Below, piece by piece: positions 8,548-44,460 of a stretch of DNA of 55,363 nucleotides. The notes under the pieces are model-generated. The model was given only the letters and a program-made list of their open reading frames with translations, was not told the DNA's origin and ran no database searches. Each line of letters opens with the position of its first letter. Position 1 is the first letter of the stretch. The DNA is from a virus (taxonomy: Duplodnaviria > Caudoviricetes): IMG/VR virus record IMGVR_UViG_3300048582_000091, positions 1 through 55,363 of that record. One strand, written 5' to 3'. The translations under genes were made by a program, and so were the position numbers.

Positions 8548-8548
8548 A

Positions 8549-8728: not shown

Positions 8729-8737
8729 TAGCCCTGT

Positions 8738-8773
8738 AATGTTACGTTTATGGAAAATAAACGTAACATTTTT
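8738..8773 (+). terminator. AT-rich 14-bp hairpin, possible terminator or processing site
   Basis: AATGTTACGTTTAT-GGAAA-ATAAACGTAACATT followed by TTT. Confidence 0.55.
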
Positions 8774-8788
8774 ATCTAACAGAGACCA

Positions 8789-9874: not shown

Positions 9875-9893
9875 ACTGCGGCAGGAAACAAAC

Positions 9894-10361: not shown

Positions 10362-10363
10362 CT

Positions 10364-10882: not shown

Positions 10883-10893
10883 GGAGTAACACA

Positions 10894-11256
10894 ATGTCTG
10901 CAAAAATCGAATTTAAATATGATCGTACACCCGAAAACACAGCGAAGCAGCTTGCTGGCGAACTGTACGGGCTAAAAGCGTTAAACGGATCAAATCTTGT
11001 ACCTCGTCTTAGCGGTAACGTTCTGACCATCGAAGCAAAAGGCTTAAATCCTGCCTTTTTTAAGAATCCGCAAGATCTCGGTCGTGAGTCTGCATTCGCA
11101 GCATTGGAAGTAATTTTTAATCAGACTGAAATTTACGGTAAAATTACCGAAGATGAAACTGAACAAAAAGTACTGATCAAACCCTGCAAGATTATACGCG
11201 AGGGCGCAGCAGATAAACTGATTATTGCTATGCCTGTGGAGAAAGTAAATGAGTAA
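10894..11256 (+). CDS. hypothetical protein
   Basis: AAGGAG RBS then ATG 10894. Confidence 0.7.
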   Translation: MSAKIEFKYDRTPENTAKQLAGELYGLKALNGSNLVPRLSGNVLTIEAKGLNPAFFKNPQDLGRESAFAALEVIFNQTEIYGKITEDETEQKVLIKPCKIIREGAADKLIIAMPVEKVNE

Positions 11257-12187: not shown

Positions 12188-12194
12188 GGAAATT

Positions 12195-12806
12195 ATGAAA
12201 CGTAAAAGATTAATACCATTTTCGTGGCTTCCCGCTGCATGGGGAATGAAAGGCAAAACACGCGAGCGTGCGCAGGCGGAGTACGAGTTAGAAGGTATAG
12301 AGCTTGAGCGCATACTAATTGATTTGGATTATGTCGGCATAGAACGTGATTTAAAATTAATCGATCTAGACTACGCACACGATATTATCACGGTGTACGA
12401 TAGAGATCGTGCAATTGCAAATCATACACTTAAAGATAACGAACTAGCAATACGTTTGCTAGAAATAGATTTTGCAGAGCGTAAGCTCACTGATATGGAA
12501 TACGATAAGCAACTTGCTACACTGAAAGGAGAAGGTTGGGTAAGAATCATTAATGTGAAGCCGGAAGGTGATAAACCCAATTACGGCGAATTAGAACTTG
12601 ACTGGAATGACGCATTTGTAGTAGAATTGCGCGAAGGTGGCTACGAAGGCGCGGCAGACGAACAGGTAGTCGATATGTGGTTATCCGATCTGTGCAGAAA
12701 CATTGCAATGGAACAATTCACAGGCACAGGCGACTTCGACGAAAAAATACCAGATCAGTTTATTCAAAAAACTAAAACCGAGGACGGAAAGTGGGAAGCG
12801 AAGTAA
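12195..12806 (+). CDS. hypothetical protein
   Basis: AAGGA RBS then ATG 12195; acidic helical protein. Confidence 0.7.
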   Translation: MKRKRLIPFSWLPAAWGMKGKTRERAQAEYELEGIELERILIDLDYVGIERDLKLIDLDYAHDIITVYDRDRAIANHTLKDNELAIRLLEIDFAERKLTDMEYDKQLATLKGEGWVRIINVKPEGDKPNYGELELDWNDAFVVELREGGYEGAADEQVVDMWLSDLCRNIAMEQFTGTGDFDEKIPDQFIQKTKTEDGKWEAK

Positions 12807-18686: not shown

Positions 18687-18872
18687 ATGAAAAGAATTGA
18701 TTTATACGGCGAAGGTCTTGTAGCCGCACAGAAAGAATGCGATCGAATAGCATCAGATATTAAGGGCCGCCACGATCTTACACGCAAAGGTGCAGGAGAA
18801 TGTTCCGCTGCAATCCGTGCATTAATTAATGAACATTACGCCGATAGGGATGCATTCGATGGGAAGCTATAA
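18687..18872 (+). CDS. hypothetical protein
   Basis: 61 aa ORF in the operon. Confidence 0.55.
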   Translation: MKRIDLYGEGLVAAQKECDRIASDIKGRHDLTRKGAGECSAAIRALINEHYADRDAFDGKL

Positions 18873-19839
18873 CGGCACCTGTGCAGTATCTAATATTCAC
18901 ATCACTAACAGTCAACGAATTGCAGTTTTTATGTTGACAGAAAAAACACACCAAGACAAGCATAGCTGCTATACGAATTCCCACTACGAATTTTGTCCCC
19001 TGCCTTTTTATGCAGAGTACAACGACTACGGTGCCGGCGAACATTGCAACGGTATCGGTCTGAATATTATTGTGGATTCCATTCGTGAAAAATTATTCGA
19101 ATTCGAACCAGGCGCAAATAAGTATCACGATATTGCTGTTAAGAAAGAAGCGTTCGACATTAACTTAATGTGGGAAGCAGCGCACGAAAACAGACTCTCG
19201 ATTGAAAGCGAACGAGAAGAAATAATGTTGCGTATGATGTTAAACAGCGCCCGAAGTCCTATCGAACAAGCAGAAATAGTAGCAAGGCTTACTAGTATAA
19301 AGGCTCGAGGCATAACCGTTATACCGATAATGGTGCGTTGTGACATTCTCGACTACATACTAGAGAACGACACAAAAGATTATCATTACCGTGATCCTGC
19401 AGGGAATTTTTCTACCGAAACTTACCGATTTCGGGATTTAATAAATGGTGTGCCGGATTACGTAAAGCGTTTACGAAATGCTGCGCCAGATGAACTGCTT
19501 TTACCGAGCAACTTTAGAGGCGACAACCTATTTAGAAACAACGAAAGAAACTATGTTGTAGAGTGGTTTCGGAGACACAGGGAGACTGTGTCTCCCTTGT
19601 TTGAGATTTTTGATCTAACAGAAAACTTGTCAAAAATGAGCGACGAATCAGCAATCGAACTATTATCCGAGTTCTTGAAGGGTTTATGGCTAAATGAATA
19701 TATGGACAGTTTACACAAGGCATGGTCAAAACCTATAACCGGTGGCCAAGTAATCGATCACCAGCCATATCAGCTATTAAACGATGCAGTACAAAAAGCA
19801 TTTAAACAAGAACGCATCGACTGGGAAATGGATGATTAA
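18859..19839 (+). CDS. hypothetical phage protein
   Basis: Long ORF, likely start MGSYNGTC at 18859 after AGGGA; contains YNDYG. Confidence 0.7.
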   Translation: MGSYNGTCAVSNIHITNSQRIAVFMLTEKTHQDKHSCYTNSHYEFCPLPFYAEYNDYGAGEHCNGIGLNIIVDSIREKLFEFEPGANKYHDIAVKKEAFDINLMWEAAHENRLSIESEREEIMLRMMLNSARSPIEQAEIVARLTSIKARGITVIPIMVRCDILDYILENDTKDYHYRDPAGNFSTETYRFRDLINGVPDYVKRLRNAAPDELLLPSNFRGDNLFRNNERNYVVEWFRRHRETVSPLFEIFDLTENLSKMSDESAIELLSEFLKGLWLNEYMDSLHKAWSKPITGGQVIDHQPYQLLNDAVQKAFKQERIDWEMDD

Positions 19840-19857
19840 AAATAATTAAAATAATAG

Positions 19858-19886
19858 TTGACAATCGGGTTGCACGTTGCTATAAT
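19858..19886 (+). promoter_or_regulatory. sigma70-type early promoter
   Basis: TTGACA(19858-63)-N17-TATAAT(19881-86) with TG extension. Confidence 0.85.
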
Positions 19887-19939
19887 AGCGACGTAAACAA
19901 ACAAACACACTTTACTTAAACAAAACGGAGTAACACAAT

Positions 19940-21031
19940 ATGTCAGATCGTAGAGTACGCCCACGTGATGCACGAATCCTCATTGAACGAGCCATGCAGG
20001 TCGGTCGTCCCATCTTTATCTGGGGCCCACCCGGCATCGGCAAGTCCGATATGATCGCTGCAATTGGCGTAGCCCAAAACCGTCCTGTAATCGACCTGCG
20101 TTTGCTGTTGCTTGAGCCAACAGACATCAAGGGTATCCCTTACTACGATATGGATACTAAATCTATGCGTTGGGCGAAACCAACTGAACTGCCAGGTGAG
20201 AACGAAATTCACTTGCACAATGCAATTCTGTTCCTAGACGAGCTGAACGCTGCGCCGCCGAGCGTACAGGCTGCTGCTTATCAGCTGATTCTCAACCGTC
20301 GTGTTGGTGAATACCGTCTGCCTGCAGGCGTTAGCATTGTAGCTGCTGGTAACCGTGACACTGACAAGGGTGTAACGTTCCGCATGCCTAGCCCGCTTGC
20401 CAACCGTTTCACTCACGTTGAACTGGAAGCTAACTTCGAAGATTGGCAGAAGTGGGCAATTAACGCTAACGTCCACGCTGACGTTGTTGGTTTCTTGTCT
20501 TACCACAAGCAGCACCTGTTTACTTTTGACCCTAAGTCACCGGACAAAGCGTTTGCTACTCCGCGTTCGTGGGCGTTTGTGGGCGATTTGATTTCAGATA
20601 ACTTGCCCGAGAGCCTGAATACTACTCTGGTAGCAGGTACTGTCGGCGAAGGTCTTGCAATTGAATTTCAGCAGCATCGTAAAGTGTCGTCTAAGCTGCC
20701 TAAGCCGGATGATGTTCTAACTGGTAAAGTTAAGGATTTACATGTAAAAGAAATTTCTGCAATGTATTCGTTGACTATTTCCATGTGCTATACTTTGCAA
20801 GAGTGGGTTAAACGTGCTAAGGACACCACCGAAGATACTTATAGCATGGATGACTGGAGCAAGAACGTTGACTTCTTCTTCCGTTACATGATGGACAACT
20901 TCGGCACAGAGATGATTGTACTTGGTGCTAAAACTGCACTGCGCGATTATCAACTACCGATTGACCACCGTAAGCTGAACAACTTCAAAGAGTTCCACAG
21001 CAAATACGGAAGCTATATTCTGGAAGATTGA
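19940..21031 (+). CDS. MoxR-like AAA+ ATPase
   Basis: Walker A GPPGIGKS, Walker B LFLDE, sensor AAGN, Arg finger LANRF. Confidence 0.92.
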   Translation: MSDRRVRPRDARILIERAMQVGRPIFIWGPPGIGKSDMIAAIGVAQNRPVIDLRLLLLEPTDIKGIPYYDMDTKSMRWAKPTELPGENEIHLHNAILFLDELNAAPPSVQAAAYQLILNRRVGEYRLPAGVSIVAAGNRDTDKGVTFRMPSPLANRFTHVELEANFEDWQKWAINANVHADVVGFLSYHKQHLFTFDPKSPDKAFATPRSWAFVGDLISDNLPESLNTTLVAGTVGEGLAIEFQQHRKVSSKLPKPDDVLTGKVKDLHVKEISAMYSLTISMCYTLQEWVKRAKDTTEDTYSMDDWSKNVDFFFRYMMDNFGTEMIVLGAKTALRDYQLPIDHRKLNNFKEFHSKYGSYILED

Positions 21032-21051
21032 TTCGACATCAGCTGTGTCAT

Positions 21052-21078
21052 AAAAAGCCCTGCAACGCAGGGCTTTTT
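21052..21078. terminator. bidirectional intrinsic terminator
   Basis: AAAAAGCCCTGC-AAC-GCAGGGCTTTTT between convergent genes. Confidence 0.9.
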
Positions 21079-21088
21079 ATTGGATGTT

Positions 21089-21643
21089 TTATACTCCGTA
21101 TTTTAACTTATTTCTTATTACACGATACGGGAAAGGGAATTGATATTGCAACATTATTCTGTCCTCCGTTCTTTTTCTAACAACGGAATGAATAGATGCA
21201 TTATTAAGCAACACCGCTTCTCCTACCTTAGGTATATCGGTATATATAGCTTCTAGGTCGGGATACTCGTTGGAATTATATACTGCCGGCGCCTTATTTG
21301 TTGTTTTAGTATCATTTAGCGGATCTTTCCAAAAGACAAGTTTAGAATCACCGTCAGTTTGCAAATACACCGTAATACTACACGGTATCATAAAATCTCT
21401 ATGCGGTATTAAGTCGGGGTCGTCTATCTTTTGCACGCATATGGCTACTCTAGATGGAAGAAATGCTACTGAAATCGGTAGCATTTTACGAAATATCGTA
21501 TCGTCACTGACATCGAAATAACGGATTGCGTTAAAATCTCTGAACGTTTCGCCGGTTTGTCTTTGCAATACTTCTTCTAAACTAAGTGGAAACTTAAGAT
21601 TGATACGTGTTATTAATGTGTTTTCAACTTCTTCTGGAGTCAT
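21089..21643 (-). CDS. 2OG-Fe(II) oxygenase-like (double-stranded beta-helix) protein
   Basis: HxD (PHRD), distal His (IHSV) and Arg (DRIMLQ) in the usual order. Confidence 0.6.
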   Translation of the reverse strand: MTPEEVENTLITRINLKFPLSLEEVLQRQTGETFRDFNAIRYFDVSDDTIFRKMLPISVAFLPSRVAICVQKIDDPDLIPHRDFMIPCSITVYLQTDGDSKLVFWKDPLNDTKTTNKAPAVYNSNEYPDLEAIYTDIPKVGEAVLLNNASIHSVVRKRTEDRIMLQYQFPFPYRVIRNKLKYGV

Positions 21644-22292
21644 AATGAGCCTTTATTTCTTTATAGTTCTTTGTTAATATTTTTAAATCTTCGTGCTCGT
21701 CTTTAGATGTAACTATGTATTTAAAACCTAAATCTTCTTCTCCGCGTATTAGCTTATCGAAATCTATAAATCTTCCACGGCCTTCTTTTACTAGTTGTTC
21801 CTGCCTGCAAAGAGAAGTCATTAGCAAATCATAATATCCGTCGAACTCTTCTAAGTCAATAGTTACTGGCTCAGATTTCGTAGTGCCGGCATAATTATAG
21901 TTATGTTTTGATATTAACAGACTAAGTAGCTGGTCGAATGTATTACTTCTTCTCGGGCATAAGAAATAATGATCCTTCACCACATCTTCGAATCCAGGGC
22001 ATTCGTCGTAATATGCACTAAACACAGTGACAATAGATTTGATAGAATTAAATTTAGTACGCTTTTTATAAAATTCCACTTGATCGGGCGTAGGAGTTAT
22101 CTCGACTACCACCCTCGGGTATTTAGTGTACGCATCAGTATTCTTAATCTTATCCCCAGTATCTGCATTATAAAATGTAGTAAATATTTCGCCAAAGTCC
22201 ATGTATCCTAGATGCCGTTTAAATATGTCTCGAATTGACTTTGTACCGGTCCGAGGCATGCCGAATACTGCTAATTTATTTGGATAATGCAT
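21624..22292 (-). CDS. sulfotransferase-like P-loop protein
   Basis: N-terminal GMPRTGTKS (PAPS 5'-binding-like), GEIF, RRSNTFDQLLS (R...S 3'-phosphate motif). Confidence 0.6.
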   Translation of the reverse strand: MHYPNKLAVFGMPRTGTKSIRDIFKRHLGYMDFGEIFTTFYNADTGDKIKNTDAYTKYPRVVVEITPTPDQVEFYKKRTKFNSIKSIVTVFSAYYDECPGFEDVVKDHYFLCPRRSNTFDQLLSLLISKHNYNYAGTTKSEPVTIDLEEFDGYYDLLMTSLCRQEQLVKEGRGRFIDFDKLIRGEEDLGFKYIVTSKDEHEDLKILTKNYKEIKAHYDSRRS

Positions 22293-23235
22293 ATATGTGC
22301 TCCTGTGTTGTGGTTACCGCTAGTGCAGACTTTCTAAAAGATTGAACATATTGTGCGCTTGCGGATTTTGTTCTGTATAAGAAATTATCATCTTTTATAA
22401 AATCCGCGACAGCTTTTTTTAACGGCATTTTGTGCAGAAAATCATCCATCTCTTTACTTTCAGCATTAGCACGCATCGAATATTGCTGAAATTCTGTAGA
22501 AGTAAAGAAAGACTCTGCGTTAGCATTATTTGAATCTGTCCATAGATATCTGCTATATTTAGCATTATGGTATCCCCAGTTAAATTCTAGCCACCATAAT
22601 AGTTTCTGCACTGTGTCGATTTTAAACGGTGCCCTATCTATAGAATCTAATAGCATTACTGCTGCTTCATATTTTCTACTACGCGGGTGCGGGCTGTATG
22701 CTACGCACTCTATAACTCGTAGTACTTTTTGTATAGTAATAGGAGTGTACAAATATTCATACCCGAATTGTTGTCCTATTTTTTTAACTTCGTCATTGTC
22801 GACCGCACCTTCGGCTCCGGAGCCGAATACATGCACGTAATTATTATCCCAGTGTCCTGCGAATCCGATAGTTAATGTATTTGCAATTATCTTTGCAAGA
22901 GAATAGCATTCGTTCATTGCTGAAACTGTTGTTATTATGTGAGGTTTTATATCGCGTTTTAACAGTTCGCACAGTACATACGCACTGTCGATACCTCCGC
23001 TATAATGCAAAGCAATAGGCTTGTTCAGTTTAAGCAACTCTTCTATGCGTGCATTACTTGCTTCTTCTAAACTTATATTCTTGTCAACAGGAATTAGTTC
23101 CGATATCATATCTATGCTAGCATCTTGCGACCTTGTCCTATCCCATACTGTTGCAGAACGTGCGGCGACAGTGTACATAGATCTTAGGGGGCTACCGGCA
23201 CTCAAATAAGAATAATTAAAGGCAAGTAATATCAT
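22276..23235 (-). CDS. PP-loop ATP pyrophosphatase, asparagine-synthetase C-domain-like amide ligase
   Basis: HYSGGIDS, FGSGAE (cf. GEGADE), C-terminal FF...KMPLK...RTK; no glutaminase domain. Confidence 0.65.
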   Translation of the reverse strand: MILLAFNYSYLSAGSPLRSMYTVAARSATVWDRTRSQDASIDMISELIPVDKNISLEEASNARIEELLKLNKPIALHYSGGIDSAYVLCELLKRDIKPHIITTVSAMNECYSLAKIIANTLTIGFAGHWDNNYVHVFGSGAEGAVDNDEVKKIGQQFGYEYLYTPITIQKVLRVIECVAYSPHPRSRKYEAAVMLLDSIDRAPFKIDTVQKLLWWLEFNWGYHNAKYSRYLWTDSNNANAESFFTSTEFQQYSMRANAESKEMDDFLHKMPLKKAVADFIKDDNFLYRTKSASAQYVQSFRKSALAVTTTQEHIYALSK

Positions 23236-23238
23236 ACA

Positions 23239-23709
23239 TCACGCCCCTAAGATTAACCTAGTATAATTAGCATGCATTAACTCGTAGTTACCTTTATCTA
23301 TATAATCGCGAGTAGATAATTCTCTCACTAACTGAGTTAGTATTTTAATTTTTAGTTTTATTAACTCTGCTCGTTCTGTATCTATCAAAACTTGTAGTCC
23401 AGGTACTAAAGAAAAACATGTCTGAATTTTCAAGTCGAAGTACGATACGACTAACGTAATCAAACTACATTTAAATGAAATCGTATCGTGCAGATTACTC
23501 TTGTTGCACTCGGTTATTTGTCCTGTAAACCCAATTACGTAATTAGGATTTAATCGATAGTAACGACTAGGCTCCATATCTGCACAAACTAATCCAGTCG
23601 ACGTTATTAATAAATCAGAGTGAGACTGTCTAGTTAATTCTGCAATTTCGTACGTTGTTGTTAAAAATACATAATGATCATTGGCGGAAAATAATATAGC
23701 TTCATTCAT
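23239..23709 (-). CDS. hypothetical protein
   Basis: 156 aa, coupled within the operon. Confidence 0.6.
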   Translation of the reverse strand: MNEAILFSANDHYVFLTTTYEIAELTRQSHSDLLITSTGLVCADMEPSRYYRLNPNYVIGFTGQITECNKSNLHDTISFKCSLITLVVSYFDLKIQTCFSLVPGLQVLIDTERAELIKLKIKILTQLVRELSTRDYIDKGNYELMHANYTRLILGA

Positions 23710-24247
23710 TAAATGTTAACCTAAATAATATATTGTCACATTTAGAAGGTTCGTTGCCTAATAACCAATTATGCCACGGTATATTAGATGTGTCGCCCTT
23801 TTTAAATTCTCTTATTTGTATCATTTGTTTAGTGTCTTTTGCGATATGCATGCCGTATCTGATAAATCCTTTCATAAACCTGTCATTTAACGGATTTTTA
23901 CGATTAGCAGTAGTACTCTTAATAATGCCTATCATGCTCTTCATGTTTAATTTGCGAGCTTCTAAGTATGCGTGCTCATGCAACTCTACTATATCTTTTG
24001 CACTAGATACGCTCATACTTAATATACTTGTGTAAGTATCCATTATAGGAAAGAAATATCGCAATATATGAACTGCAACTATCTTCTCGTTACTCATCAT
24101 AACATCTATATTGTGCAATGAGAAGATAGTCTTATCTTCGATGCTGTTTATTATTAAATTCGAACAAGTATATAGCTTTTTCTTCTCTAATTCTTTTAAA
24201 AATTCCAGCAGTAAAGGCGTGTCGTCTGCTGATAATCTTCTTATCAT
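23702..24247 (-). CDS. possible GNAT-fold acyltransferase
   Basis: MIRRLSADD...LLEF N-terminus and size fit GNAT; the acetyl-CoA motif is not clear. Confidence 0.4.
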   Translation of the reverse strand: MIRRLSADDTPLLLEFLKELEKKKLYTCSNLIINSIEDKTIFSLHNIDVMMSNEKIVAVHILRYFFPIMDTYTSILSMSVSSAKDIVELHEHAYLEARKLNMKSMIGIIKSTTANRKNPLNDRFMKGFIRYGMHIAKDTKQMIQIREFKKGDTSNIPWHNWLLGNEPSKCDNILFRLTFNE

Positions 24248-25029
24248 ACTTGTCGCAGTAGTCTTAACATCTGGTATCCAATGTCTACTTCGCCCGGTTT
24301 CATTGCAAAGTTAGCTTTGTTTGCGTGGGCGTGATGATTATTGTGAAGCCCTTCTCCGGCAGTGATTAGTGAACAGAATGTATTATTTGTACTATCGTTA
24401 CCGACTTCGAAGTTCTTATAGCCTACGTTTTTGTGATGACAAATATAATCAACAAAAAACTGCATAACAAATATAGATACAAAAGCAGGCGCAAAATATG
24501 CGTATATAACTAACATAGGATTGATAAGTGCTAATACTGCGATATACGCTAGCGCCACGCCCCAGTAGTATTTGTGTGTAGTCCACAGATAATCATTCTT
24601 ATCAACTTTTCTAATTCTAGAAATTGCGTAGCGTTCGTTCACTGGCTGATAAGCACGGAGAAAGACTATTCTCCACCAAGGGACAGTGCTAGGTGTCTGG
24701 GGGTCGTCTGCTGTGTCGGCAATTGCGTGATGGTGAGAATGAACTGCGGAATATAGCAATGGGGATCCTTGCCCTAATAGCGCAGCTACAGTAAGACAAA
24801 ATCTGTAAAACCACGGATCAGGGTTAAAACTGCGATGCGCTGCTATACGATGATGTCCGATCGAACCACCGAATGTAATACCGACAAAGGAAAACATCGC
24901 CCATAGAGCAGCGTAGTACCATGTAATATTGATTGTTGCAAAAATACACGCCAATGCTCCTAATAATAGAAATAGTTGGCAAGACAGACGAGTTTGTTCA
25001 AGTGTCAGAAAGTTTTTCAGGTTTAGCAT
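24244..25029 (-). CDS. membrane-bound di-iron fatty acid desaturase (delta-9-like)
   Basis: His boxes HHRIAAHRSF, HSHHH and GEGLHNNHH; TM helices; likely ATG 25029 (ORF opens at 25041). Confidence 0.92.
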   Translation of the reverse strand: MLNLKNFLTLEQTRLSCQLFLLLGALACIFATINITWYYAALWAMFSFVGITFGGSIGHHRIAAHRSFNPDPWFYRFCLTVAALLGQGSPLLYSAVHSHHHAIADTADDPQTPSTVPWWRIVFLRAYQPVNERYAISRIRKVDKNDYLWTTHKYYWGVALAYIAVLALINPMLVIYAYFAPAFVSIFVMQFFVDYICHHKNVGYKNFEVGNDSTNNTFCSLITAGEGLHNNHHAHANKANFAMKPGEVDIGYQMLRLLRQV

Positions 25030-25537
25030 ACGTAGTCTCAAAATAATATATTGTAACTGTGTCGGTTTCTAGGCAAACTTTTTTATTAAATATGCCTGTG
25101 CTCGATAGTAGTCTACCTTCTTCATATACGATGCCGTTTTCTGCAAAACTAACAGCACCGGTCTCTATATACCCGATTGTATTATCAGGCATCATAAAGT
25201 CTTCGGTATATGTAACTCTGTAAGAATTTACTTGTATTTTTTTTCTAGAATAAGAACAAATCCATTCGGTGCCATCTTCGTGTACCCTGATATAATATGT
25301 GCCCGGTGGATGAGTTTTGCCGTCCACCTTAGTGCCGAATTTAGGCACGTAATCAGAACACATCTCCCCTTTCTCATTGTACATAGACATAGAGCCTTTA
25401 ATGATGTATATAGATCTCTCTAGTGTTTCAAGAGGAAGACCGTTAGGACGTTCCTCTTTGTATACAGTTTCGCCTTTATTCGCAATACAATGCAGTGCTA
25501 TTAAATCTCTTCTAACACTCTTAGTTTTGATATGCAT
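24998..25537 (-). CDS. hypothetical beta-rich (cupin-like) protein
   Basis: Two YIIKGS / YIETGA half-repeats; resembles 45871-46377. Confidence 0.5.
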   Translation of the reverse strand: MHIKTKSVRRDLIALHCIANKGETVYKEERPNGLPLETLERSIYIIKGSMSMYNEKGEMCSDYVPKFGTKVDGKTHPPGTYYIRVHEDGTEWICSYSRKKIQVNSYRVTYTEDFMMPDNTIGYIETGAVSFAENGIVYEEGRLLSSTGIFNKKVCLETDTVTIYYFETTYAKPEKLSDT

Positions 25538-26220
25538 TACTTAGCTAAACCTTCTTTACCATAAAGCATATATTTCATTACGTTTTTGACTTCTAACTGA
25601 TATGCATACGTAATGAACCCGAGTTCTTCAGCATCGGCAGCTTCGTCGATATCGTTTGCAGCTACTATTCTTTTAGATTCTAAAATAACAAATACTTGTC
25701 TTAATTTGTCTCGCATCTCTAACGCTTCTGCAACAACTACCTCAACATCCACACATCTGATGTCTGCCTCTACTTGAATAAACGCAGGCAACTCAATCAA
25801 TCCGTACTTATATTGTTCCACCATGGTAAATCTAAGAGGAGAATTCACGACTGCAATAGCAAGATTAAGATCTTTATGCAATGTTTGTTTTGACATATCT
25901 TTCAGTTCTTCTAGCGTATCTGCAGGCAATGGAATATCGCCGCTGTCTTCTATTTGCACTAATCTCTCAATGAGCTCGAAGTTCGAGGCAGAAGCAACTA
26001 CTGCTGCTCGTCGAAATACATATAATGGCGCACGTTCCATAATTGCTGCGGACAATACGTCTCCTGTCACGTATTCGCCTGTAGTTTCGTCAACAGGTAC
26101 GTCTACTTCTAAGTATGTGCCTTGTGGTAAATCATCGTTGTAAAATTTTACAACTAGTCTACCGTAATCTGTGTTAGCATTTGTAATTTTGTACTTAATT
26201 GCCTTTATTTTAGTTTCCAT
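25537..26220 (-). CDS. hypothetical protein, possible tail-fibre assembly/chaperone type
   Basis: Directly follows the adhesin; helical C-terminal half starting TLEELK. Confidence 0.45.
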   Translation of the reverse strand: METKIKAIKYKITNANTDYGRLVVKFYNDDLPQGTYLEVDVPVDETTGEYVTGDVLSAAIMERAPLYVFRRAAVVASASNFELIERLVQIEDSGDIPLPADTLEELKDMSKQTLHKDLNLAIAVVNSPLRFTMVEQYKYGLIELPAFIQVEADIRCVDVEVVVAEALEMRDKLRQVFVILESKRIVAANDIDEAADAEELGFITYAYQLEVKNVMKYMLYGKEGLAK

Positions 26221-26223
26221 AAA

Positions 26224-27084
26224 TCACCCTTGTCGTGTGCCGTATATATTTCCGAATACTGCATATATTATTAATGAATTACCCTGAATAGCTACTCCTG
26301 CTTCTGTCGCAAATTCGCCCGTCACGCCGTCTTGTGTTAGACCATTGCCGCCCCTTGCACCGATGCCGCCGCCACTACCTTCGTTGTTTGTGCCATTATT
26401 ATATGCCCCTTGCTGTCCGGCCGGGGTACTAGCACTAGCTGTAGCCATATCGTATCCGTTAGTAACCGAACCAGGCAACACAGTTGCAACAGTGTCTCCG
26501 CCACCGCCGCCGCCGCTTGCAATGCCGGCTTTTGACGCCCAGTACTGACTTCCGCCAGCCCCGCCGCCGCCACCAATGATACCGTTGTTTGTTAGCGTCA
26601 ACGGCACCGTAGTTCTTAACGCTGGGCCACCATTCGCACCCGCAACGTAGTTACCGTTTGCGTCAGCCGTTGCTGGTTGACCTTGTTTACCTACTATACG
26701 GCCTGCCGATCCTATATTTAGCACAATTGCTGATCCTGCCGGTAAATTTCCGGAATCAAATGCATACGATCCAGCGGAGCTAGAACCTACAACCGAGTTC
26801 ACAGTGACCGTAACTCTGACAGGGTCAACGCCGTTCCATCCTGTACCTAACGCAGCGTCTCGCACATTATAATTAGGGGTAGCTGTATCTATAGATGGCG
26901 GCGAGACCGGAATTAGATAAGTTTTTCCGTAAAAATTAGAATAACTAATTTGCGAATTGGGAGCCGGTACCCCGGCTAAGCTACGTGCTGCTGGATCATT
27001 TATACTAAATGTAGCTGTAGCACTTCTGTCTAATTCTACGTTTATCTGGGAAGCTGCAATTGTTCCACTAGGCGGTAGAGCCAT
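26224..27084 (-). CDS. Gly-rich tail-fibre adhesin-like protein (T2/S16 gp38-type)
   Basis: LTNNGIIGGGGGAGG and further Gly tracts; N-terminus paralogous to 34067-35134; AGGAG RBS. Confidence 0.65.
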   Translation of the reverse strand: MALPPSGTIAASQINVELDRSATATFSINDPAARSLAGVPAPNSQISYSNFYGKTYLIPVSPPSIDTATPNYNVRDAALGTGWNGVDPVRVTVTVNSVVGSSSAGSYAFDSGNLPAGSAIVLNIGSAGRIVGKQGQPATADANGNYVAGANGGPALRTTVPLTLTNNGIIGGGGGAGGSQYWASKAGIASGGGGGGDTVATVLPGSVTNGYDMATASASTPAGQQGAYNNGTNNEGSGGGIGARGGNGLTQDGVTGEFATEAGVAIQGNSLIIYAVFGNIYGTRQG

Positions 27085-27109
27085 ATGTTTCTCCTACGAT
27101 TTATTAATA

Positions 27110-27206
27110 TATTTATCATCCGATTATACTGTACGAGGCTGTCTAGCAAATGTAACAGCGTATATAAGCTATTTATCTAAATAATTTAAACTATAAAAGA
27201 TAAATA
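27110..27206. promoter_or_regulatory. divergent putative late promoters (GATAAATA)
   Basis: GATAAATA on - at 27110-17 and 27170-77 and on + at 27199-27206. Confidence 0.65.
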
Positions 27207-27236
27207 TATGATAAACATTTTCATAGGAGAATAAAA

Positions 27237-27773
27237 ATGGCATTTTTACCGAACAACCCAAATGGAGTAAACGTAGCGCCTAGTGCTAACACCAAACCAA
27301 TGGACGGTTTCTGGAGCGAAAGAGATGTTACTTGGTTAGCCCTTACTGCAACATACACGCTAGGCGGGACACTATACGAAGATGCGTTTGAAAAACCATG
27401 GAGTATTGCGGGTTACACTGAAAACGTAACTAACGTCTTAGAAGATCGCGGTACAATCATAGGTATGTATAACAATCAACCGGCGCCCCTAGGTTCTCAG
27501 CCAGTCGGAAGCACCGGTGAGGGCGGAACACTTTACATCGCATTAGGACACGCTGCTGGGTATTTTGCGCCGGGTTCGATTACTACCGGAACTAAAGACG
27601 CCGGTGGGGTACTAACCTTTGCCGGAACTAAACCAGATCCAACAAATCCTGCACTAACAGTACCGTTTGTTGACCCGGTAAGTGAAGGTATTATTGCAAA
27701 AGTATTAGCGGACTATCCTTATGTGCCTGCGACTTTAGAAATTCTTGTCGGAAACGGGTTCGTAGTCCTTTAA
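27237..27773 (+). CDS. hypothetical, likely virion protein
   Basis: AGGAG RBS, GATAAATA upstream, Gly/Thr/Pro-rich. Confidence 0.6.
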   Translation: MAFLPNNPNGVNVAPSANTKPMDGFWSERDVTWLALTATYTLGGTLYEDAFEKPWSIAGYTENVTNVLEDRGTIIGMYNNQPAPLGSQPVGSTGEGGTLYIALGHAAGYFAPGSITTGTKDAGGVLTFAGTKPDPTNPALTVPFVDPVSEGIIAKVLADYPYVPATLEILVGNGFVVL

Positions 27774-27854
27774 TTTACTCACAATTTATCGTATCCTAGA
27801 GAGTAAAACGATAAATAAACACTTAATAACAACAACCCTTAAGGAGAAATAAAA

Positions 27855-28163
27855 ATGAAAGGTTTAGTATTAATTCCAGTAGCATTAATGATTGCGTTGA
27901 CTACCGGTTGTGCAGCAACTGATAAAATCAGTGATGAATTGCACATCTTTGGCGGCCACCACAACGAACTAAAGCATCGCATTAACAAAGCAGAAGACAC
28001 TGCTGCTCATGCACAAGCTGATGCTGCTGCTGCACAAGCTGATGCTGCTGCTGCACAAGCTGATGCTGCGGCTGCTAAGGCTGACGCTGCTCACGCACAA
28101 GCCACAGCCGAAGCTGCTAAGAGAATGGCGCAACAGGCGCTTGACAAGTATAGTAGAAAATAA
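27855..28163 (+). CDS. OprI/Lpp-like alanine-zipper outer-membrane lipoprotein
   Basis: Signal peptide with lipobox LTTG-C, Ala heptads, C-terminal KYSRK; AAGGAG RBS; GATAAATA at 27810-17. Confidence 0.85.
   Translation: MKGLVLIPVALMIALTTGCAATDKISDELHIFGGHHNELKHRINKAEDTAAHAQADAAAAQADAAAAQADAAAAKADAAHAQATAEAAKRMAQQALDKYSRK
28011..28094 (+). repeat. 21-bp tandem repeat, four copies, encoding AQADAAA heptads
   Basis: GCACAAGCTGATGCTGCTGCT twice exact plus two degenerate copies. Confidence 0.9.
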
Positions 28164-28177
28164 GTTATACCGCCGTG

Positions 28178-28209
28178 AAAAGAAAGCCGCTTAAAAGCGG
28201 CTTTCTTTT
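28178..28209 (+). terminator. intrinsic terminator
   Basis: AAAAGAAAGCCGCTT-AA-AAGCGGCTTTCTTTT. Confidence 0.85.
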
Positions 28210-28214
28210 GGTCA

Positions 28215-28255
28215 GATAAATAGTAGTTGACAAGGTATGCAATGTATGTTATACT
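28215..28255 (+). promoter_or_regulatory. tandem late motif plus sigma70 promoter for the cold-shock gene
   Basis: GATAAATA 28215-22; TTGACA(28227-32)-N17-TATACT(28250-55). Confidence 0.75.
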
Positions 28256-28308
28256 TGTCGCGTAATAAAAGATTACGCAATACAACTTATATAGGATTTA
28301 AAAGATTT

Positions 28309-28518
28309 ATGTCTAATTTAGTATCAGGTACAGTAAAGTGGTTTGACGATGAAAAAGGCTTCGGCTTTATTCAACAGGCTAACGGTCGTGATGTATTCGT
28401 TCATCACACCGGCATTGGCGGTACAGGTCGCAAAACGCTTGCAGAAGGCCAAACGGTTTCGTTTGAAGTGATTACGGGTTCGAAAGGACTTCAGGCACAG
28501 AACGTCACTATTAAATAA
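28309..28518 (+). CDS. cspA: cold-shock protein
   Basis: GTVKWF, RNP1 KGFGFI, RNP2 VFVHH; ATG 28309, 69 aa. Confidence 0.95.
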
Positions 28519-28528
28519 TGCTGTACCA

Positions 28529-28560
28529 AATAAAAAAGCACCTTAAGGTGCTTTTTTATT
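28529..28560. terminator. bidirectional terminator (perfect 32-bp palindrome)
   Basis: AATAAAAAAGCACCTTAAGGTGCTTTTTTATT between convergent genes. Confidence 0.9.
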
Positions 28561-28564
28561 GACT

Positions 28565-29881
28565 TTAAGTTTTAATTAATGAAAATAATGTGCCGGTGCC
28601 GCCGTCCGATGCATTCGGTATTAAGGGTAACGTAAAACTGCCCGAAGTAGCTGGACTAGGTATATGGGTATACGATGGGGCAGTATAATCATTTGCTCCG
28701 CCTGCGAAATTGGCCCTCATAACAGTAGTAACAGGGGTTGTGGATAGCCCGCCGATGCAATACACACTTGAACTAGTTGCTATTAAACTAGAATTTCCGA
28801 GATTAGCACCGATTGTGCCGCCGACTACCCATGCGCCCAACGTACCATCTGCATTAATCGGCGCAATATGCATGACATTTACACCAACACCATCGTAACT
28901 GCCTATTAAAAATACGTGAGAATTGGTCACTAACGATTGTTGTTGTCGTTGCGCAGATGGCAACGGTGTACTAGTAGTCCACGCACCTAGCGTACCGTCT
29001 GCATTTATAGGGGCAGTATAAACTGTTGCTACTGTTGCTGTTGTCAAGCCACCACAATAATACACTCTGGAATTAGTTACAAATGCCTGGCCGCCTCGTA
29101 TCGCGACAGGCAACGGAGTACCAGTAGTCCACGCACCTAGTGTACCGTTTACATTAATTGGTGCAGTATAAACTGTAGAAACCGAAGCACCAGCAGAATT
29201 CAAGCCACCTAGTAAATATACTCGAGATTTAGTCACGATTGCTTGCGATACTCCCAGTGCTGCTGGCAACGAAGTGCCAGCAGCCCATGTACCTAAAGTA
29301 CCGTCTGCATTTATAGGGGCAGTATATACCACCGATGTTGCAGCATCGGCGCTATTTATTCCGCCTAACAAATATACGCGAGAATTAGTAATAATCGCTG
29401 AAGAATTTCTTAACGGCGTCGGCAACGAGGTACCGGTAGTCCATGTTCCTATAAATCCGCCAGCAGTAATCGGCGCGGTGTAAACTGTTGCAGTAGTAGC
29501 AGGGGTGTTTGTTGTAAACCCTCCTAAATAATACACCCGCGATTTAGTTACGATTGCTGAGCCGGTTGCGCGCCCCGCAGGAAGACCGCCTACAGCACCC
29601 CAACCGGTAATATTACTAGTCTGTGCAAAATTGGTGTTATACTGATGACAGTATGGTTTTCCGTACAAATATGTGTTGCTTGCAGGAGTGTACGTTGATC
29701 CGATAGCAGCATATAAATCTGGATAGGTTAACTGGGATTCTTCAAAACCATTACACCGAAGAAAACCTGCAGGTAAATCTGTTCCCGAATATTGTATTAT
29801 ATCGCCGGGTTGTATCCCTGCTGCAGGGGTTGTTCCTACATTAGCATTTATTGAAACTTTACCAGATACATTTATACTCAT
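28565..29881 (-). CDS. tail-collar-domain protein with Kelch-like beta-propeller
   Basis: PGDIIQYSG...GFLRCNG...YPDLYAAIG collar motif; about six 50-52 aa repeats SRVYLLGG...VYTAPINADGTLGAW; ATG 29881 after GGAG. Confidence 0.8.
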   Translation of the reverse strand: MSINVSGKVSINANVGTTPAAGIQPGDIIQYSGTDLPAGFLRCNGFEESQLTYPDLYAAIGSTYTPASNTYLYGKPYCHQYNTNFAQTSNITGWGAVGGLPAGRATGSAIVTKSRVYYLGGFTTNTPATTATVYTAPITAGGFIGTWTTGTSLPTPLRNSSAIITNSRVYLLGGINSADAATSVVYTAPINADGTLGTWAAGTSLPAALGVSQAIVTKSRVYLLGGLNSAGASVSTVYTAPINVNGTLGAWTTGTPLPVAIRGGQAFVTNSRVYYCGGLTTATVATVYTAPINADGTLGAWTTSTPLPSAQRQQQSLVTNSHVFLIGSYDGVGVNVMHIAPINADGTLGAWVVGGTIGANLGNSSLIATSSSVYCIGGLSTTPVTTVMRANFAGGANDYTAPSYTHIPSPATSGSFTLPLIPNASDGGTGTLFSLIKT

Positions 29882-29911
29882 TTTTTTCTCCAAAAGGTAT
29901 AATTTATCATT

Positions 29912-29999: not shown

Positions 30000-31217
30000 A
30001 TGGCTACTGCAAAACAAATTGAAGATCTAATTGTTCGTGCTCGTGTCCGAATGCTTCTAAAAGTCCCGTTTTTTGGTAATCTCGCTACTCGTCTTAAATT
30101 AGTAGACGGTAGCGGCTGGGTTCCCACAGCCGCTACCGACGGAAAGCATCTATATTACAACGTTGATTTCTTTTCCAAAATGGACAAAAAAGAGATTGAA
30201 TTTGTTGTAGCACATGAAGTCATGCACTGTGTATATGACCACATGACTCGCCGTGGCAGTCGTGATCCTCGGCTGTGGAACTGCGCAGGTGACTATGTGA
30301 TTAACGGCGAATTGATTGAACAAAAGATCGGTCGTTTGCCTACAGTCGTCAAGTGCTTATTTGACGCAAAATACAACGGCATGTGTTCAGAAGAAGTATA
30401 CAACCTACTTGTAGAAGATGACAAGAACGGTAAAGGCGACAAGAGCATGGATTCCTTTGACAAACACCTGGACCCAGCAGATGGCAAAGGTGAAGGAAAA
30501 GGTAAGCCAGGTGACGAAGATCCGACCGGTTACGGCGGACAAATTCCGATGAGTGAAGAAGAGCGTCAACAGGTTGCCGACGAGATTAAGCAGGCTGTGA
30601 TGCAGGCTGCTAAAGTTGCAGGTGCAGGCAGCTGCCCCGGTGGCGTCAAGCGTATGCTAAAAGATTTAACTGAGCCGCAAATGAATTGGCGAGAAATTCT
30701 TAACATGCAGATTCAGAGCTGTGTTAAGAGTGACTTTACTTTTGCTCGTCCTAACCGTAAGACTTGGGGCACAGGTATTATCCTGCCAGGTATGACTGTT
30801 GAAAATGCGCTGGATGTTGATATTGCTATCGACACTTCTGGCTCTATTAGCACAGAAATGCTGCGCGACTTTCTCGGCGAAGTTAAAGGTATCATGGACC
30901 AGTTTAGTGACTTTGTTGTCCGTGTCTGGACCTTTGATACTAGTGTGCATAACATGCAGAAGTTCACGCCAGACACCATAGACGAGCTAATGGATTACGA
31001 TATTCAGGGCGGTGGCGGCACCGAGTTTATGGTTAACTGGAATTTCATGAAAGAAGAAGGCATTGAGCCGCATCGCCTAATTTTATTTACAGATGGATAT
31101 CCGTGGGGTAGCTGGGGCGACGAAAATTATTGCGAAACAGTCTTCCTAATTCACGGTAACAAGTCCATCCAAGCACCATTCGGGATGACAGTGCATTACG
31201 AGGCAGATAAGCGTTAA
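30000..31217 (+). CDS. metallopeptidase-like + VWA domain protein (DUF2201 type), MoxR partner
   Basis: TAATDG, HEXXH (AHEVMH), MIDAS IDTSGS, GGGGT, FTDG. Confidence 0.9.
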   Translation: MATAKQIEDLIVRARVRMLLKVPFFGNLATRLKLVDGSGWVPTAATDGKHLYYNVDFFSKMDKKEIEFVVAHEVMHCVYDHMTRRGSRDPRLWNCAGDYVINGELIEQKIGRLPTVVKCLFDAKYNGMCSEEVYNLLVEDDKNGKGDKSMDSFDKHLDPADGKGEGKGKPGDEDPTGYGGQIPMSEEERQQVADEIKQAVMQAAKVAGAGSCPGGVKRMLKDLTEPQMNWREILNMQIQSCVKSDFTFARPNRKTWGTGIILPGMTVENALDVDIAIDTSGSISTEMLRDFLGEVKGIMDQFSDFVVRVWTFDTSVHNMQKFTPDTIDELMDYDIQGGGGTEFMVNWNFMKEEGIEPHRLILFTDGYPWGSWGDENYCETVFLIHGNKSIQAPFGMTVHYEADKR

Positions 31218-34066: not shown

Positions 34067-35134
34067 TTATCCCACAACCCCGAACGCCCTACCAGACCCG
34101 GATACCCAGGTTACTGCATTTCCGCCGGTGTTGATTGCTTTTCCACCTGCTGCGCCGACATAGTATGTCATGTTAGGCGAGAAGCCGGATATGTTGTTAC
34201 CGATATCGCCAGCGCCTGCGCCGCCACCGGAGTTACCGAACGCAGTGACGTTATCACTGGAGCCGCCGGTGCCTCCGGCGGCTCCCCAACCACCGCCACC
34301 GCCACCGCCGTTTGTACCAGTTTTACTACCGTCCGCGGCATATCCGCCCCCTGCCCCACCTGCACCGGGGTTGGCGCCAAGGGCTCCGCCGCCAGCACCT
34401 GGGTAATAAGTACCAGCAGTATTCATTGTGTTACCGAACGCGCCGTAGCCTGGCATACCTCGTCCACCACCACCGCCACCGCCGGTATTAGCAGCACCAT
34501 TTCCTCCGCTGGCGCCCAAGCCGCCTCCAGCGCCGCCGCCACTACCACTGGTTCCGCCTCCAGCGCCGCCTCCAGCGCCGCCGCCGCCACCTCCATAAGT
34601 TGCGCCGCCACCACCACCGCCACCGCCGCCGATGTATCCGGCCCCATTGGTGATTGTAATCGGTCTGCTGATACTTATTGCAGTACTTCCGGCAACTGGG
34701 GCGTAAATGGCAAGTCCGGAATCAGATCCGCCGCCGTACCCACCCTGCCCCATTATAAACCCGTTGTTTACTAATACTATTGTGTCGCCTGTGGTGCCTC
34801 CGGTAATATTTAACGCAATGCCACCGGTTGCATTAGAGTATACATAAATTCCGCTGTTTACGGTTACATTAACAGTAGTATTTCCTGCAATGTACCCTGG
34901 GAGCGCATTTATGTTAATGGTTGCATTAGCAGTATGAGCGCTATAAGTAACCGATAAATTAGCTCTTGATGATTTACCGTAGAAATTGTCAAACGCAATG
35001 GTGCTGCCAGCAGCAGGCCTTCCTGCTAATGTCCTCACATTGGTGTCGTTAAGTGTAATTAGTGCTGTCCCGCTCTTACCTAACTCTACGTTAACCATGT
35101 TGAGGTTTATCGGCCCCGATAATGGTAATGTCAT
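34067..35134 (-). CDS. Gly-rich tail-fibre adhesin (gp38-type)
   Basis: LVNNGFIMGQGG, YIGGGGGGGGG and many poly-Gly tracts; TAATG-coupled to the chaperone-bearing fibre. Confidence 0.75.
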   Translation of the reverse strand: MTLPLSGPINLNMVNVELGKSGTALITLNDTNVRTLAGRPAAGSTIAFDNFYGKSSRANLSVTYSAHTANATININALPGYIAGNTTVNVTVNSGIYVYSNATGGIALNITGGTTGDTIVLVNNGFIMGQGGYGGGSDSGLAIYAPVAGSTAISISRPITITNGAGYIGGGGGGGGGATYGGGGGGAGGGAGGGTSGSGGGAGGGLGASGGNGAANTGGGGGGGRGMPGYGAFGNTMNTAGTYYPGAGGGALGANPGAGGAGGGYAADGSKTGTNGGGGGGGWGAAGGTGGSSDNVTAFGNSGGGAGAGDIGNNISGFSPNMTYYVGAAGGKAINTGGNAVTWVSGSGRAFGVVG

Positions 35135-37326: not shown

Positions 37327-37389
37327 TCTGTACTCCTGCATTGTTTAATTATTATATTTATCTGTAATATGAACATATAAGTTACTGAC

Positions 37390-42107: not shown

Positions 42108-42135
42108 AACCACTCCATTAAAACAGTAATACTCA

Positions 42136-43656: not shown

Positions 43657-43665
43657 GGAGGTCCA

Positions 43666-44433: not shown

Positions 44434-44435
44434 AG

Positions 44436-44460
44436 AAAAAGGGACTTAGGTCCCTTTTTT
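44436..44460 (+). terminator. intrinsic terminator
   Basis: AAAAAGGGAC-TTAG-GTCCCTTTTTT. Confidence 0.88.

Follow-up and report, generated by a model that had tools for sequence, protein, structure and literature searches.

A nine-gene unit that joins a gp38-type adhesin to a recurrent enzyme island in an uncultured jumbo phage: a possible late pathway for a lipid-like molecule

Background

Why should the gene for a phage tail adhesin be followed, with hardly a nucleotide in between, by genes for an acyl desaturase, a synthetase, a sulfotransferase and an oxygenase? The question is raised by nine minus-strand genes, here called g1 to g9, of the IMG/VR virus record IMGVR_UViG_3300048582_000091 (Duplodnaviria; Caudoviricetes). 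By the window we mean the whole stretch of DNA analysed, which is the complete record of 55,363 bp. It is without terminal repeats, and since CheckV puts it at about 15% completeness, a source genome of several hundred kb is implied. A first-pass annotation, made from the sequence alone, had read the nine genes as a late operon and suggested that the enzymes decorate the adhesin or the virion, or else make a small molecule at assembly or lysis. It added that it knew of no described system with this architecture. Our literature search likewise found no published description of this gene set, and the terms sulfotransferase, desaturase, asparagine synth, PP-loop, PAPS and AsnB do not occur in the main text of a review of jumbo phages (PMC7824862).

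We propose that the unit has two parts. The first would consist of a second gp38-type tip adhesin (g1) and an ORFan (g2). The second, g3 to g9, would be one instance of a variable enzyme island of large environmental phages. The recurrent members of such islands appear to be desaturases of the stearoyl-CoA-desaturase (SCD) type, AsnB-like PP-loop synthetases without glutaminase, virus-specific sulfotransferases dependent on 3'-phosphoadenosine-5'-phosphosulfate (PAPS), and small 2-oxoglutarate (2OG)-Fe(II) oxygenases. The finding belongs with the known accessory or auxiliary gene islands of phages. What such an island does is a more speculative matter. The reading that we prefer, tentatively and at somewhat less than an even chance, is a pathway, active late in infection, whose enzymes desaturate, hydroxylate, sulfate and amidate an envelope molecule that resembles a lipid.

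The nine-gene unit and its proteins

All nine open reading frames (ORFs) were found where the first-pass annotation had placed them (Table 1). They tile 21089-27084 with overlaps or with gaps of at most 3 nucleotides (nt); the junctions from g1 to g9 measure, in order, +3, -1, -44, -4, -8, +3, -17 and -20 nt. Start and stop codons overlap at 6 of the 8 junctions, and such overlaps suggest that expression of the nine genes may be coupled. Of the family labels proposed earlier five have stood (adhesin, desaturase, PP-loop, sulfotransferase and oxygenase) and three have not (assembly protein, cupin and GNAT); the ninth protein had been left without a label and stays so.

Table 1. Positions of the nine genes and of the predicted signals around them (assignments are predictions; aa, amino acids)
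Feature	Position	Strand	Remarks
Distal GATAAATA late-promoter-like motif	27170..27177	-	85 nt before g1 ATG
Proximal GATAAATA late-promoter-like motif	27110..27117	-	25 nt before g1 ATG; AGGAG ribosome-binding site follows
g1, gp38-type Gly-rich tail-fibre tip adhesin	26224..27084	-	286 aa; Pfam GP38, phrog_2056
g2, acidic ORFan	25537..26220	-	227 aa
g3, ORFan	24998..25537	-	179 aa
g4, membrane-bound di-iron acyl desaturase, stearoyl-CoA-desaturase (delta-9) type	24244..25041	-	265 aa, TTG start
g5, ORFan	23702..24247	-	181 aa
g6, ORFan	23239..23709	-	156 aa
g7, PP-loop ATP-pyrophosphatase, AsnB synthetase-domain fold, without glutaminase	22276..23235	-	319 aa
g8, PAPS-type sulfotransferase, Stf0/NodH-like fold, virus-specific family	21624..22292	-	222 aa
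g9, small 2OG-Fe(II) oxygenase, nearest Asp/Asn beta-hydroxylase and 2OG-FeII_Oxy_5 types	21089..21643	-	184 aa
Bidirectional intrinsic-terminator-like hairpin	21050..21080		14-pair stem, 6 G-C pairs, flanking A-run and T-run

For g4, the label of a di-iron membrane desaturase is upheld by a Pfam score above the cut-off (FA_desaturase, PF00487, 68.3 bits against 29.7; E 1.1e-18), by a complete set of His boxes and by membrane segments. The protein matches the human and mouse SCD1 structures (4e-7 and 5e-6) and its His boxes align with those of SCD1; H64/H69, H101/H104/H105, H202 and H233/H236/H237 are invariant in 13 viral homologues. Hydrophobic segments lie at residues 17-43 and 159-201, and no other of the nine proteins has such segments. 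It is not an equivalog of the DesA family, its score for NF049918 (78.7 bits) lying below the cut-off of 400. That delta-9 desaturases of viruses are auxiliary metabolic genes has been established, as is reported for the cyanophage desaturase vFAD (PMC5776448). Like vFAD, g4 is encoded by a phage and retains the His boxes of a membrane di-iron desaturase, its closest type being delta-9/SCD. Unlike vFAD, g4 sits in what would be a late unit of several enzymes, has no match among GenBank phages (tblastn, E<=1e-3), and has relatives that are often accompanied by paralogues and by PP-loop, oxygenase or sulfotransferase partners. The expansion of paralogues can go far: a 73-kb viral contig (L131) holds five tandem desaturase paralogues at 8291-12204 and a sixth at 19472-20236, the array adjoining a homologue of a 1115-aa protein from the fibre region of the window.

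The PP-loop of g7 is an SGGxDS loop in which G80, G81, D83 and S84 are invariant, and S79 nearly so, among 60 sequences. A profile of g7 also picks up the PP-loops in chains of the NAD synthase-like, MesJ and LarE kinds. The best PDB folds for its AlphaFold2 (AF2) model (pLDDT 88.6, pTM 0.90) are asparagine, beta-lactam and carbapenam synthetases, with E of 1e-3 to 2e-2 over about 290-310 columns and low template modelling (TM) scores (TMq about 0.28-0.36). Proteins of uncultured phages, some of them named 'Asparagine synthase', are the matches in BFVD (TMq 0.86-0.66). The 319 aa of g7 align only with the synthetase domain of chains of about 500 aa, so that no N-terminal glutaminase is present. 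Loop and fold together speak for the earlier label of an AsnB-like ligase without glutaminase. What g7 has in common with AsnB and with the beta-lactam and carbapenam synthetases is the loop and the best-matching folds; what sets it apart is the missing glutaminase, the low TM scores and a sub-threshold score against Pfam Asn_synthase (13.6 bits against 21). g7 is predicted to work like the synthetase half of AsnB, but it is not a member of AsnB proper.

A search of PDB sequences with g7 as a single sequence gave no hit at E<=10, and a word-index protein search matched only 2 proteins. At E<=1e-3 the family has 166 relatives in 1.84 billion representatives. It is virus-rich, almost wholly viral or metagenomic, outside Pfam and unnamed; we call it F0. 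There is no PHROG family for it either. In many contigs of uncultured myoviruses (L012, L016, L033 and others) F0 stands among T4-like structural genes, the order being gp15-like sheath stabiliser, small terminase, PP-loop protein, large terminase and sheath.

For g8, the sulfotransferase label agrees with a structure search that gave TM scores of 0.68-0.72 to clusters labelled Sulfotransfer_1, Sulfotransfer_3, Sulphotransf and NodH; two of the matches (PF00685 and PF13469) were close enough to lend the protein a name. Its sequence stays below the Pfam cut-off (Sulfotransfer_4, 14.4 bits against 22.8; E 0.035). Residues G11, R14, G16, T17 and K18 (GxPR[ST]GTK) and the pair R78...S86 are invariant in 7 homologues. 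They may correspond to the 5'-phosphosulfate loop and to the Arg...Ser pair for the 3'-phosphate. The fold links g8 to the bacterial PAPS sulfotransferases of the Stf0/NodH kind, and so does an adenosine-5'-phosphosulfate (APS) kinase gene beside its homologues in three lineages. Unlike these enzymes, g8 is sub-threshold in Pfam, and a pattern scan of 185,579 prokaryote species, each represented by one genome, found no relative of its family. What phage sulfotransferases do 'remains unclear' according to one report (PMC10580990).

For g9, fold and residues agree with the label of a 2OG-Fe(II) oxygenase. TM scores to clusters of PF05118 and PF13759 are 0.61-0.69, one match being near enough for naming. 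The motif H81-x-D83 together with H152 forms an H-x-D...H triad that contains the only two His of the protein, and R162 follows 10 residues after H152. The Pfam scores lie below the cut-offs (2OG-FeII_Oxy_5, 13.1 bits against 27; Asp_Arg_Hydrox, 11.4 against 22.6).

The remaining proteins, g2, g3, g5 and g6, have no family match in Pfam, PHROGs, NCBIfam, PADLOC, PDB sequences (E<=10) or the 176 loci that we fetched. Because of this, the labels 'assembly protein' (g2), 'cupin' (g3) and 'GNAT' (g5) are left unsupported, and g6 keeps its place among proteins without an assignable family. Alignment of g3 with the island families by hhalign gave a probability of at most 1.6%, and that of g5 with the GNAT family of loci L002 and L005 gave 0.2%. 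In Pfam the sole hit of g5 at E<=1 is an unrelated one, and a word-index search among 5.8 billion proteins returned only the cluster of g5 itself. The single-sequence AF2 model of g5 has a mean pLDDT of 43.7 and its Foldseek list is noise; the GNAT-compatible order of helices and strands was not counted. Against 30 chosen island families the ORFans reached a probability of at most 3.2%, in a comparison of low power with single-sequence queries.

Recurrence of the enzyme set in other phages

Single-protein scans of viral contigs with g7 and g4 returned nothing, and alignment-based scans were needed. An alignment of 7 sulfotransferase homologues led to 5 viral loci from 4 lineages (L003 is close to L004) and to 13 metagenome loci, 3 of which are the same records. 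The desaturase alignment led to at least 567 viral loci, and F0 is found in at least 282; neighbourhoods were taken from the best 80 of each. For the enzymes, the conserved synteny that the first-pass annotation had thought worth a search does exist. Homologues of g8, at about 35% identity, adjoin desaturases, PP-loop synthetases and APS kinase in large phages.

In all five viral sulfotransferase loci a desaturase lies within a few kb. Two of the five also hold F0, and L003 and L004 hold another AsnB-like PP-loop protein. APS kinase, by Pfam annotation, is beside or near the sulfotransferase in L002/L088, L005 and L090. ATP-grasp ligases lie directly beside it in L006 and L090. Other enzymes come and go: L002/L088 and L005 have a GNAT, L005 adds a PhyH dioxygenase as well as a radical-SAM enzyme, and L004 has rubrerythrin. 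Two arrangements deserve a description of their own. In L097 (6037-10684) two radical-SAM genes are followed by two sulfotransferase-like genes in tandem. In L090 (6477-13603) an ATP-grasp gene (GARS_A, 9e-30) and a PP-loop-like gene of 389 aa precede the sulfotransferase and an APS-kinase-like gene of 341 aa follows it, with a nicotinamide phosphoribosyltransferase nearby.

From the side of the desaturase, 78 further loci were kept for counts of neighbours. A PP-loop family (F0, F29 or F94) is present in 26 of them, F50 or F109 in 25, radical SAM in 23 and this sulfotransferase in 2; in 55 of the 78, one or more island families are present. By hhalign F29 and F94 are related to F0 as PP-loop families (probability 95.8% and 93.5%), with SGGxDS in 7/7 and 2/2 members, respectively. 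Oxygenases similar to g9 occur in L102/L103, L169 and L172. From the side of F0, 9 of the 82 F0-holding loci fetched have a desaturase, 2 a sulfotransferase and 22 a weakly cupin-like neighbour family. The enzymes of the window belong, then, to a widespread and very variable island of large uncultured environmental phages. The idea of a coherent set of tailoring enzymes gains support from their conserved co-occurrence.

Relatives also indicate where such islands are placed. In six loci (L130, L176, L114, L123, L177 and L143, of which L114 and L123 are near-duplicates) homologues of the ATPase gene 19940-21031 and of 30000-31217 adjoin; homologues of 43369-44860 come next, and then the enzyme island. 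In the window the same core genes are set apart by 9 kb (the nine genes and 27237-29893) and by 12 kb of fibre genes. Since the core genes that flank it adjoin in relatives, the nine-gene cluster occupies a variable region. In related jumbo-phage contigs the genes of the ATPase (phrog_1297) and of the product of 30000-31217 (405 aa; phrog_1314, annotated 'HNH endonuclease') are a conserved adjacent pair, with E of about 1e-130 to 1e-147.

Hyperplastic regions full of accessory genes are a feature of T4-like myoviruses from marine and fresh waters. PP-loop proteins of the present family stand between terminase and neck genes in T4-like contigs. According to a study of pelagimyophages, their genes include radical-SAM proteins, an Asp/Asn beta-hydroxylase and a stearoyl-CoA desaturase (PMC7029224). 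The likeness includes oxygen-dependent enzymes (2OG oxygenases and Asp/Asn beta-hydroxylase), radical-SAM proteins and desaturases that cluster variably among structural genes. What differs here is a coupled unit of nine genes, headed by an adhesin, in a PA5oct-related jumbo phage, together with a sulfotransferase family that has recurring partners.

Promoter-like motif and terminator

Both GATAAATA motifs that had been reported ahead of the operon are present on the minus strand. The window has 17 exact copies of GATAAATA, compared with a mean of 4.11 (standard deviation 1.85, maximum 11) in 100 shuffles, none of which reached 17. One-mismatch variants are at chance level (102 against 92.2). 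Fourteen of the 17 copies sit 5-37 nt upstream of a start codon on the same strand. All 17 lie within 27110-54364, the part with the fibre genes, and none is inside the nine-gene cluster; positions 1-27109, where nearly all large ORFs are on the plus strand, have none. The motif precedes the fibre genes 28565-29893, 35134-37341 and 40737-42113. In relatives it stands ahead of island genes too, before the fibre-like gene that heads the desaturase operon of L130, before radical-SAM and F90 genes in L111 and before a radical-SAM gene in L108. Its position in L111 and L108 suggests that the island genes may be late genes in their own right.

A few other places of the motif may be mentioned. It forms divergent pairs at 27110/27199 and 42136/42164. 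It precedes 27855-28163, which encodes 102 aa with a lipoprotein-type signal (lipobox-like ...TTGC) and an alanine-zipper (Lpp-like) repeat; this lipoprotein could be a spanin or an exclusion protein. It also precedes 28237-28518, which encodes a cold-shock-domain protein (CSD, 3.5e-24).

The late promoter of T4-type phages is TATAAATA, a -10-like octamer shortly upstream of late genes. This sequence itself is not enriched in the window (4 copies against 7.0 expected). Because of the likeness that we take GATAAATA to have to the T4 late promoter, we infer that it marks a late or structural class of promoters. At the other end of the unit, the bidirectional terminator proposed earlier corresponds to a hairpin that lies between the convergent ATPase gene (ending at 21031) and g9 (ending at 21089) and is common to both. 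Terminator-like sites on the minus strand inside the unit amount to a single weak one of 5 pairs, and sigma-70-like sites are about as frequent in the region as chance predicts (22 against 21.5). With a motif ahead, a terminator at the end and negligible signals of either kind inside, the simplest reading is that 21050-27177, a composite feature, would be transcribed as one late unit.

The adhesin and the fibre genes

The label of a Gly-rich gp38-like adhesin for g1 is sustained by a match above the curated cut-off of Pfam GP38 (PF05268; 50.1 bits against 25, E 4e-13, residues 84-284), and g1 matches phrog_2056, 'tail fiber protein; host specificity', at 2.2e-16. Its residues 1-55 are 51% identical to the N-terminus of another gp38-like protein of the window, encoded at 34067-35134. 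The latter (355 aa, no Pfam hit, phrog_10745/26817) lies directly behind the gp37-like fibre 35134-37341 of 735 aa. g1 itself is thus the second, 'orphan' gp38-type copy, with no gp37-like fibre gene adjoining. As its N-terminal attachment domain is common to the protein behind the gp37-like fibre, g1 is most likely, to judge by sequence, an alternative tip adhesin encoded away from its fibre. The fibre of 735 aa and that encoded at 40737-42113 (458 aa) both end in a Peptidase_S74 intramolecular-chaperone domain, in which they are 58% identical to each other. Given these chaperone and N-terminal domains, the window would hold two fibres and two adhesins with related attachment parts. In Yersinia, Serratia and Erwinia jumbo phages, hypothetical proteins that neighbour 'long tail fiber protein p37' have the g1-type N-terminal domain as well.

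g1 resembles the gp38 adhesins of T2/T6/S16-type phages in its Gly-rich sequence, in its score above the PF05268 cut-off and in an N-terminal domain of about 55 aa that it has in common with a paralogue directly behind a gp37-like fibre. It differs from them in heading an enzyme operon instead of lying next to a fibre gene, and in that only about 20% of it, the N-terminus, aligns with any GenBank phage.

Is the adhesin tied to the enzymes in other phages? Of the sulfotransferase loci, viral and metagenomic, 13 are left once 3 records that came up in each scan are taken out, and none of them holds a gp38 homologue. Fibre genes were detected by homology to the fibres of the window, by two fibre families, by the chaperone domain and by an N-terminal fibre motif, which gives a lower bound. 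A fibre-like gene lies within 3 kb in 12 of 91 desaturase loci (10 of 89 with near-duplicates collapsed), compared with 127 of 1994 (6.4%) for other genes there. This enrichment is at most two-fold, non-significant and at most weak. In the related phages L176, L171 and L148 the island has no adhesin gene in front. Hence the comparative data do not back the earlier proposal that the enzymes decorate the adhesin or the virion. At present the coupling is better explained by the site: an adhesin adjoins the island because such islands gather in the hyperplastic fibre region under late promoters, and not because it is the target of the enzymes.

The window and its nearest relatives

The window represents part of the genome of an uncultured jumbo phage from fresh water, a distant kin of the PA5oct-like phages. 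The nearest GenBank relatives are PA5oct-like Pseudomonas jumbo phages, to whose homologue the AAA-ATPase (19940-21031) is 58.6% identical. Among 50,697 GenBank phage records the DNA of the region found no match by blastn, and g7, g4, g2, g3 and g8 found none by tblastn (g4 at E<=1e-3). Near-identical DNA is present in contigs of all four sequencing runs examined, from four studies whose metagenomes are labelled freshwater, wetland and biofilter. A strain with about 96% identity is collinear with 18687-28557 and keeps the whole nine-gene cluster. In the same strain 15 nt stand in place of the fibre gene 28565-29893, so that the contig joins 28557 to 29929. That gene encodes a tail-collar and Kelch beta-propeller fibre; here we see a presence/absence polymorphism of a receptor-binding gene. 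The GC content of g2 to g9 (0.32-0.42) is within about 1-2 standard deviations of the mean of ORFs in the window (0.41, standard deviation 0.05), and as far as base composition can tell there is no clear sign of recent foreign origin.

Discussion

What might the island do? If our preferred reading of a lipid-directed pathway is correct, the enzymes would, late in infection, remodel or build an amphiphilic molecule of lipid type at the host membrane or envelope. g4 would act at the membrane, giving an acyl chain a double bond. g9 would hydroxylate. g8 would move sulfate from host PAPS onto a hydroxyl group. g7 would adenylate a carboxylate and close an amide bond with ammonia or another amine. 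That the substrate would be a lipid (acyl) chain, and at least one step would take place at the membrane, is suggested by g4, which alone of the nine has membrane segments. The order of the steps is our guess.

Several observations weigh against such a pathway. One transcript and late timing are read from the motif, and there may be internal promoters of another class. On paper the pathway is incomplete, since no function can be assigned to g2, g3, g5 and g6. Nor was an acyl-carrier, acyltransferase or head-group enzyme identified in the window, and no gene for the supply of PAPS was found in this 15% fragment. L090, L095 and L097, in which 9-10 kb are visible on at least one side, show no desaturase, and 23 of the 78 desaturase loci show no island family. 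F0 is found among T4-like terminase, neck or sheath genes (TerS, TerL or gp15-like) in 35 of its 82 loci. The make-up of the islands is very variable, each family also occurring without the others, which fits independent accessory genes equally well. The radical-SAM/SPASM, ATP-grasp and GNAT genes of sister islands would be as compatible with a peptide or a protein as with a lipid for a substrate. Finally, a tight layout of fibre or adhesin and desaturase is repeated in three distant loci, so that their adjacency may be more than an accident. In L136 three fibre genes, a gp38-like gene, genes for 90 aa and 177 aa and two desaturases all abut on the same strand; L135 has a fibre, a protein with the gp38 N-terminal domain (E 3.7e-8) and, 889 nt on, two desaturases; L130 has GATAAATA, a fibre-like gene of 519 aa and, 27 nt on, two desaturases.

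The variability of the islands leads to the thought that there is no common pathway at all. Seven auxiliary or moron genes might have gathered beside the fibres independently, each acting on its own host substrate in membrane fluidity, sulfur metabolism or hydroxylation. We hold this to be unlikely, although far from negligible. Island content does differ from locus to locus, desaturases multiply to five in tandem and a sixth (L131), and F0 keeps company with TerS, TerL or gp15-like genes much more often than with desaturase (9/82) or sulfotransferase (2/82). The core genes on either side of the cluster adjoin in relatives. Viral delta-9 desaturases that occur singly are moreover established as auxiliary genes (PMC5776448). 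Yet the sulfotransferase family, for which the pattern scan found no prokaryote relative, stays in the company of desaturase, PP-loop protein and APS kinase across lineages that differ in gene order and flanks, and the overlap of start and stop codons at most junctions suggests coupled expression. The repeated layout of L130, L135 and L136 leads in another direction. Enzymes could be directed at the adhesin, the fibre tip or other virion proteins, which would be hydroxylated, sulfated, amidated or acylated during assembly. Adhesin and enzymes are after all under one promoter motif and tightly or translationally coupled; in L108 and in L024/L035 islands lie between fibre genes; sister islands have radical-SAM/SPASM enzymes; and among the named relatives closest to g9 are Asp/Asn beta-hydroxylases, enzymes that hydroxylate proteins. 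We nevertheless find decoration of the virion very unlikely, as the enzyme with the best support, an acyl desaturase that is integral to the membrane and has SCD-type His boxes, is not one that modifies proteins, and as the islands of L176, L171 and L148, the absence of gp38 from the 13 sulfotransferase loci and the at most weak proximity of fibres (12/91 against 6.4%) all speak against it. A wider version, which we rate as rather improbable, is a virus-specific pathway at the interface of virion and cell surface that modifies, late in infection, either fibre or adhesin proteins or a receptor-bearing envelope lipid or lipopolysaccharide, by sulfation, hydroxylation, amidation or desaturation. 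It would explain why, in at least four lineages distant from one another (the window, L130, L135 and L136), a fibre or adhesin gene stands immediately before an island of this type and the same late motif governs both.

The AsnB-like, radical-SAM/SPASM, ATP-grasp and GNAT families are known to tailor ribosomally synthesized and post-translationally modified peptides (RiPPs). Sister islands hold all of these (glutaminase-less AsnB-like synthetases; Radical_SAM 4.5e-8 and SPASM 2.8e-6; ATP-grasp; GNAT). One may therefore imagine ligases, radical-SAM/SPASM enzymes, oxygenase and sulfotransferase that tailor a ribosomal peptide released at lysis. The unit itself makes this highly improbable: its ORFs tile 21089-27084 so closely that no room is left for a precursor-peptide gene, it has no radical-SAM, ATP-grasp or peptidase gene, and a membrane acyl desaturase is atypical for RiPP clusters. 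Variable phage islands often hold genes of conflict, and the PP-loop protein has weak hits to QueC-like and LarE families (phrog_1550, 0.0086; TIGR00268, 0.0067), so that a module of defence, counter-defence or DNA modification, with a QueC-like enzyme acting on nucleotides, might also come to mind. It seems to us extremely unlikely. PADLOC models match none of the nine proteins, no nucleic-acid-binding or nucleotide-metabolism domain was found in the unit, and the alignment of the g7 model with AsnB-type synthetases runs over about 300 columns, that with LarE or QueC being confined to the PP-loop core.

Conclusion

Desaturases, 2OG oxygenases and sulfotransferases of phages are usually listed singly, as auxiliary metabolic genes. 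Here they form a recurring set of large uncultured phages, placed under a promoter motif of structural genes. The set includes an AsnB-like family that is virus-rich and missing from Pfam, and a sulfotransferase family for which a pattern scan found no member in cellular genomes. The preferred reading of a lipid-directed pathway turns scattered annotations into a testable hypothesis, that of a late phage pathway with a sulfated, hydroxylated or amide-linked product of lipid-like nature. g3 to g9 span only 4.4 kb, and their co-expression in a laboratory host is feasible. Should the wider idea of a pathway at the interface of virion and cell surface prove true instead, it would be an undescribed way to tune adsorption, to keep progeny off debris or to exclude superinfection. 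If the product or the target lies at the cell envelope or on the virion, a chemical layer would be added to phage-host recognition.

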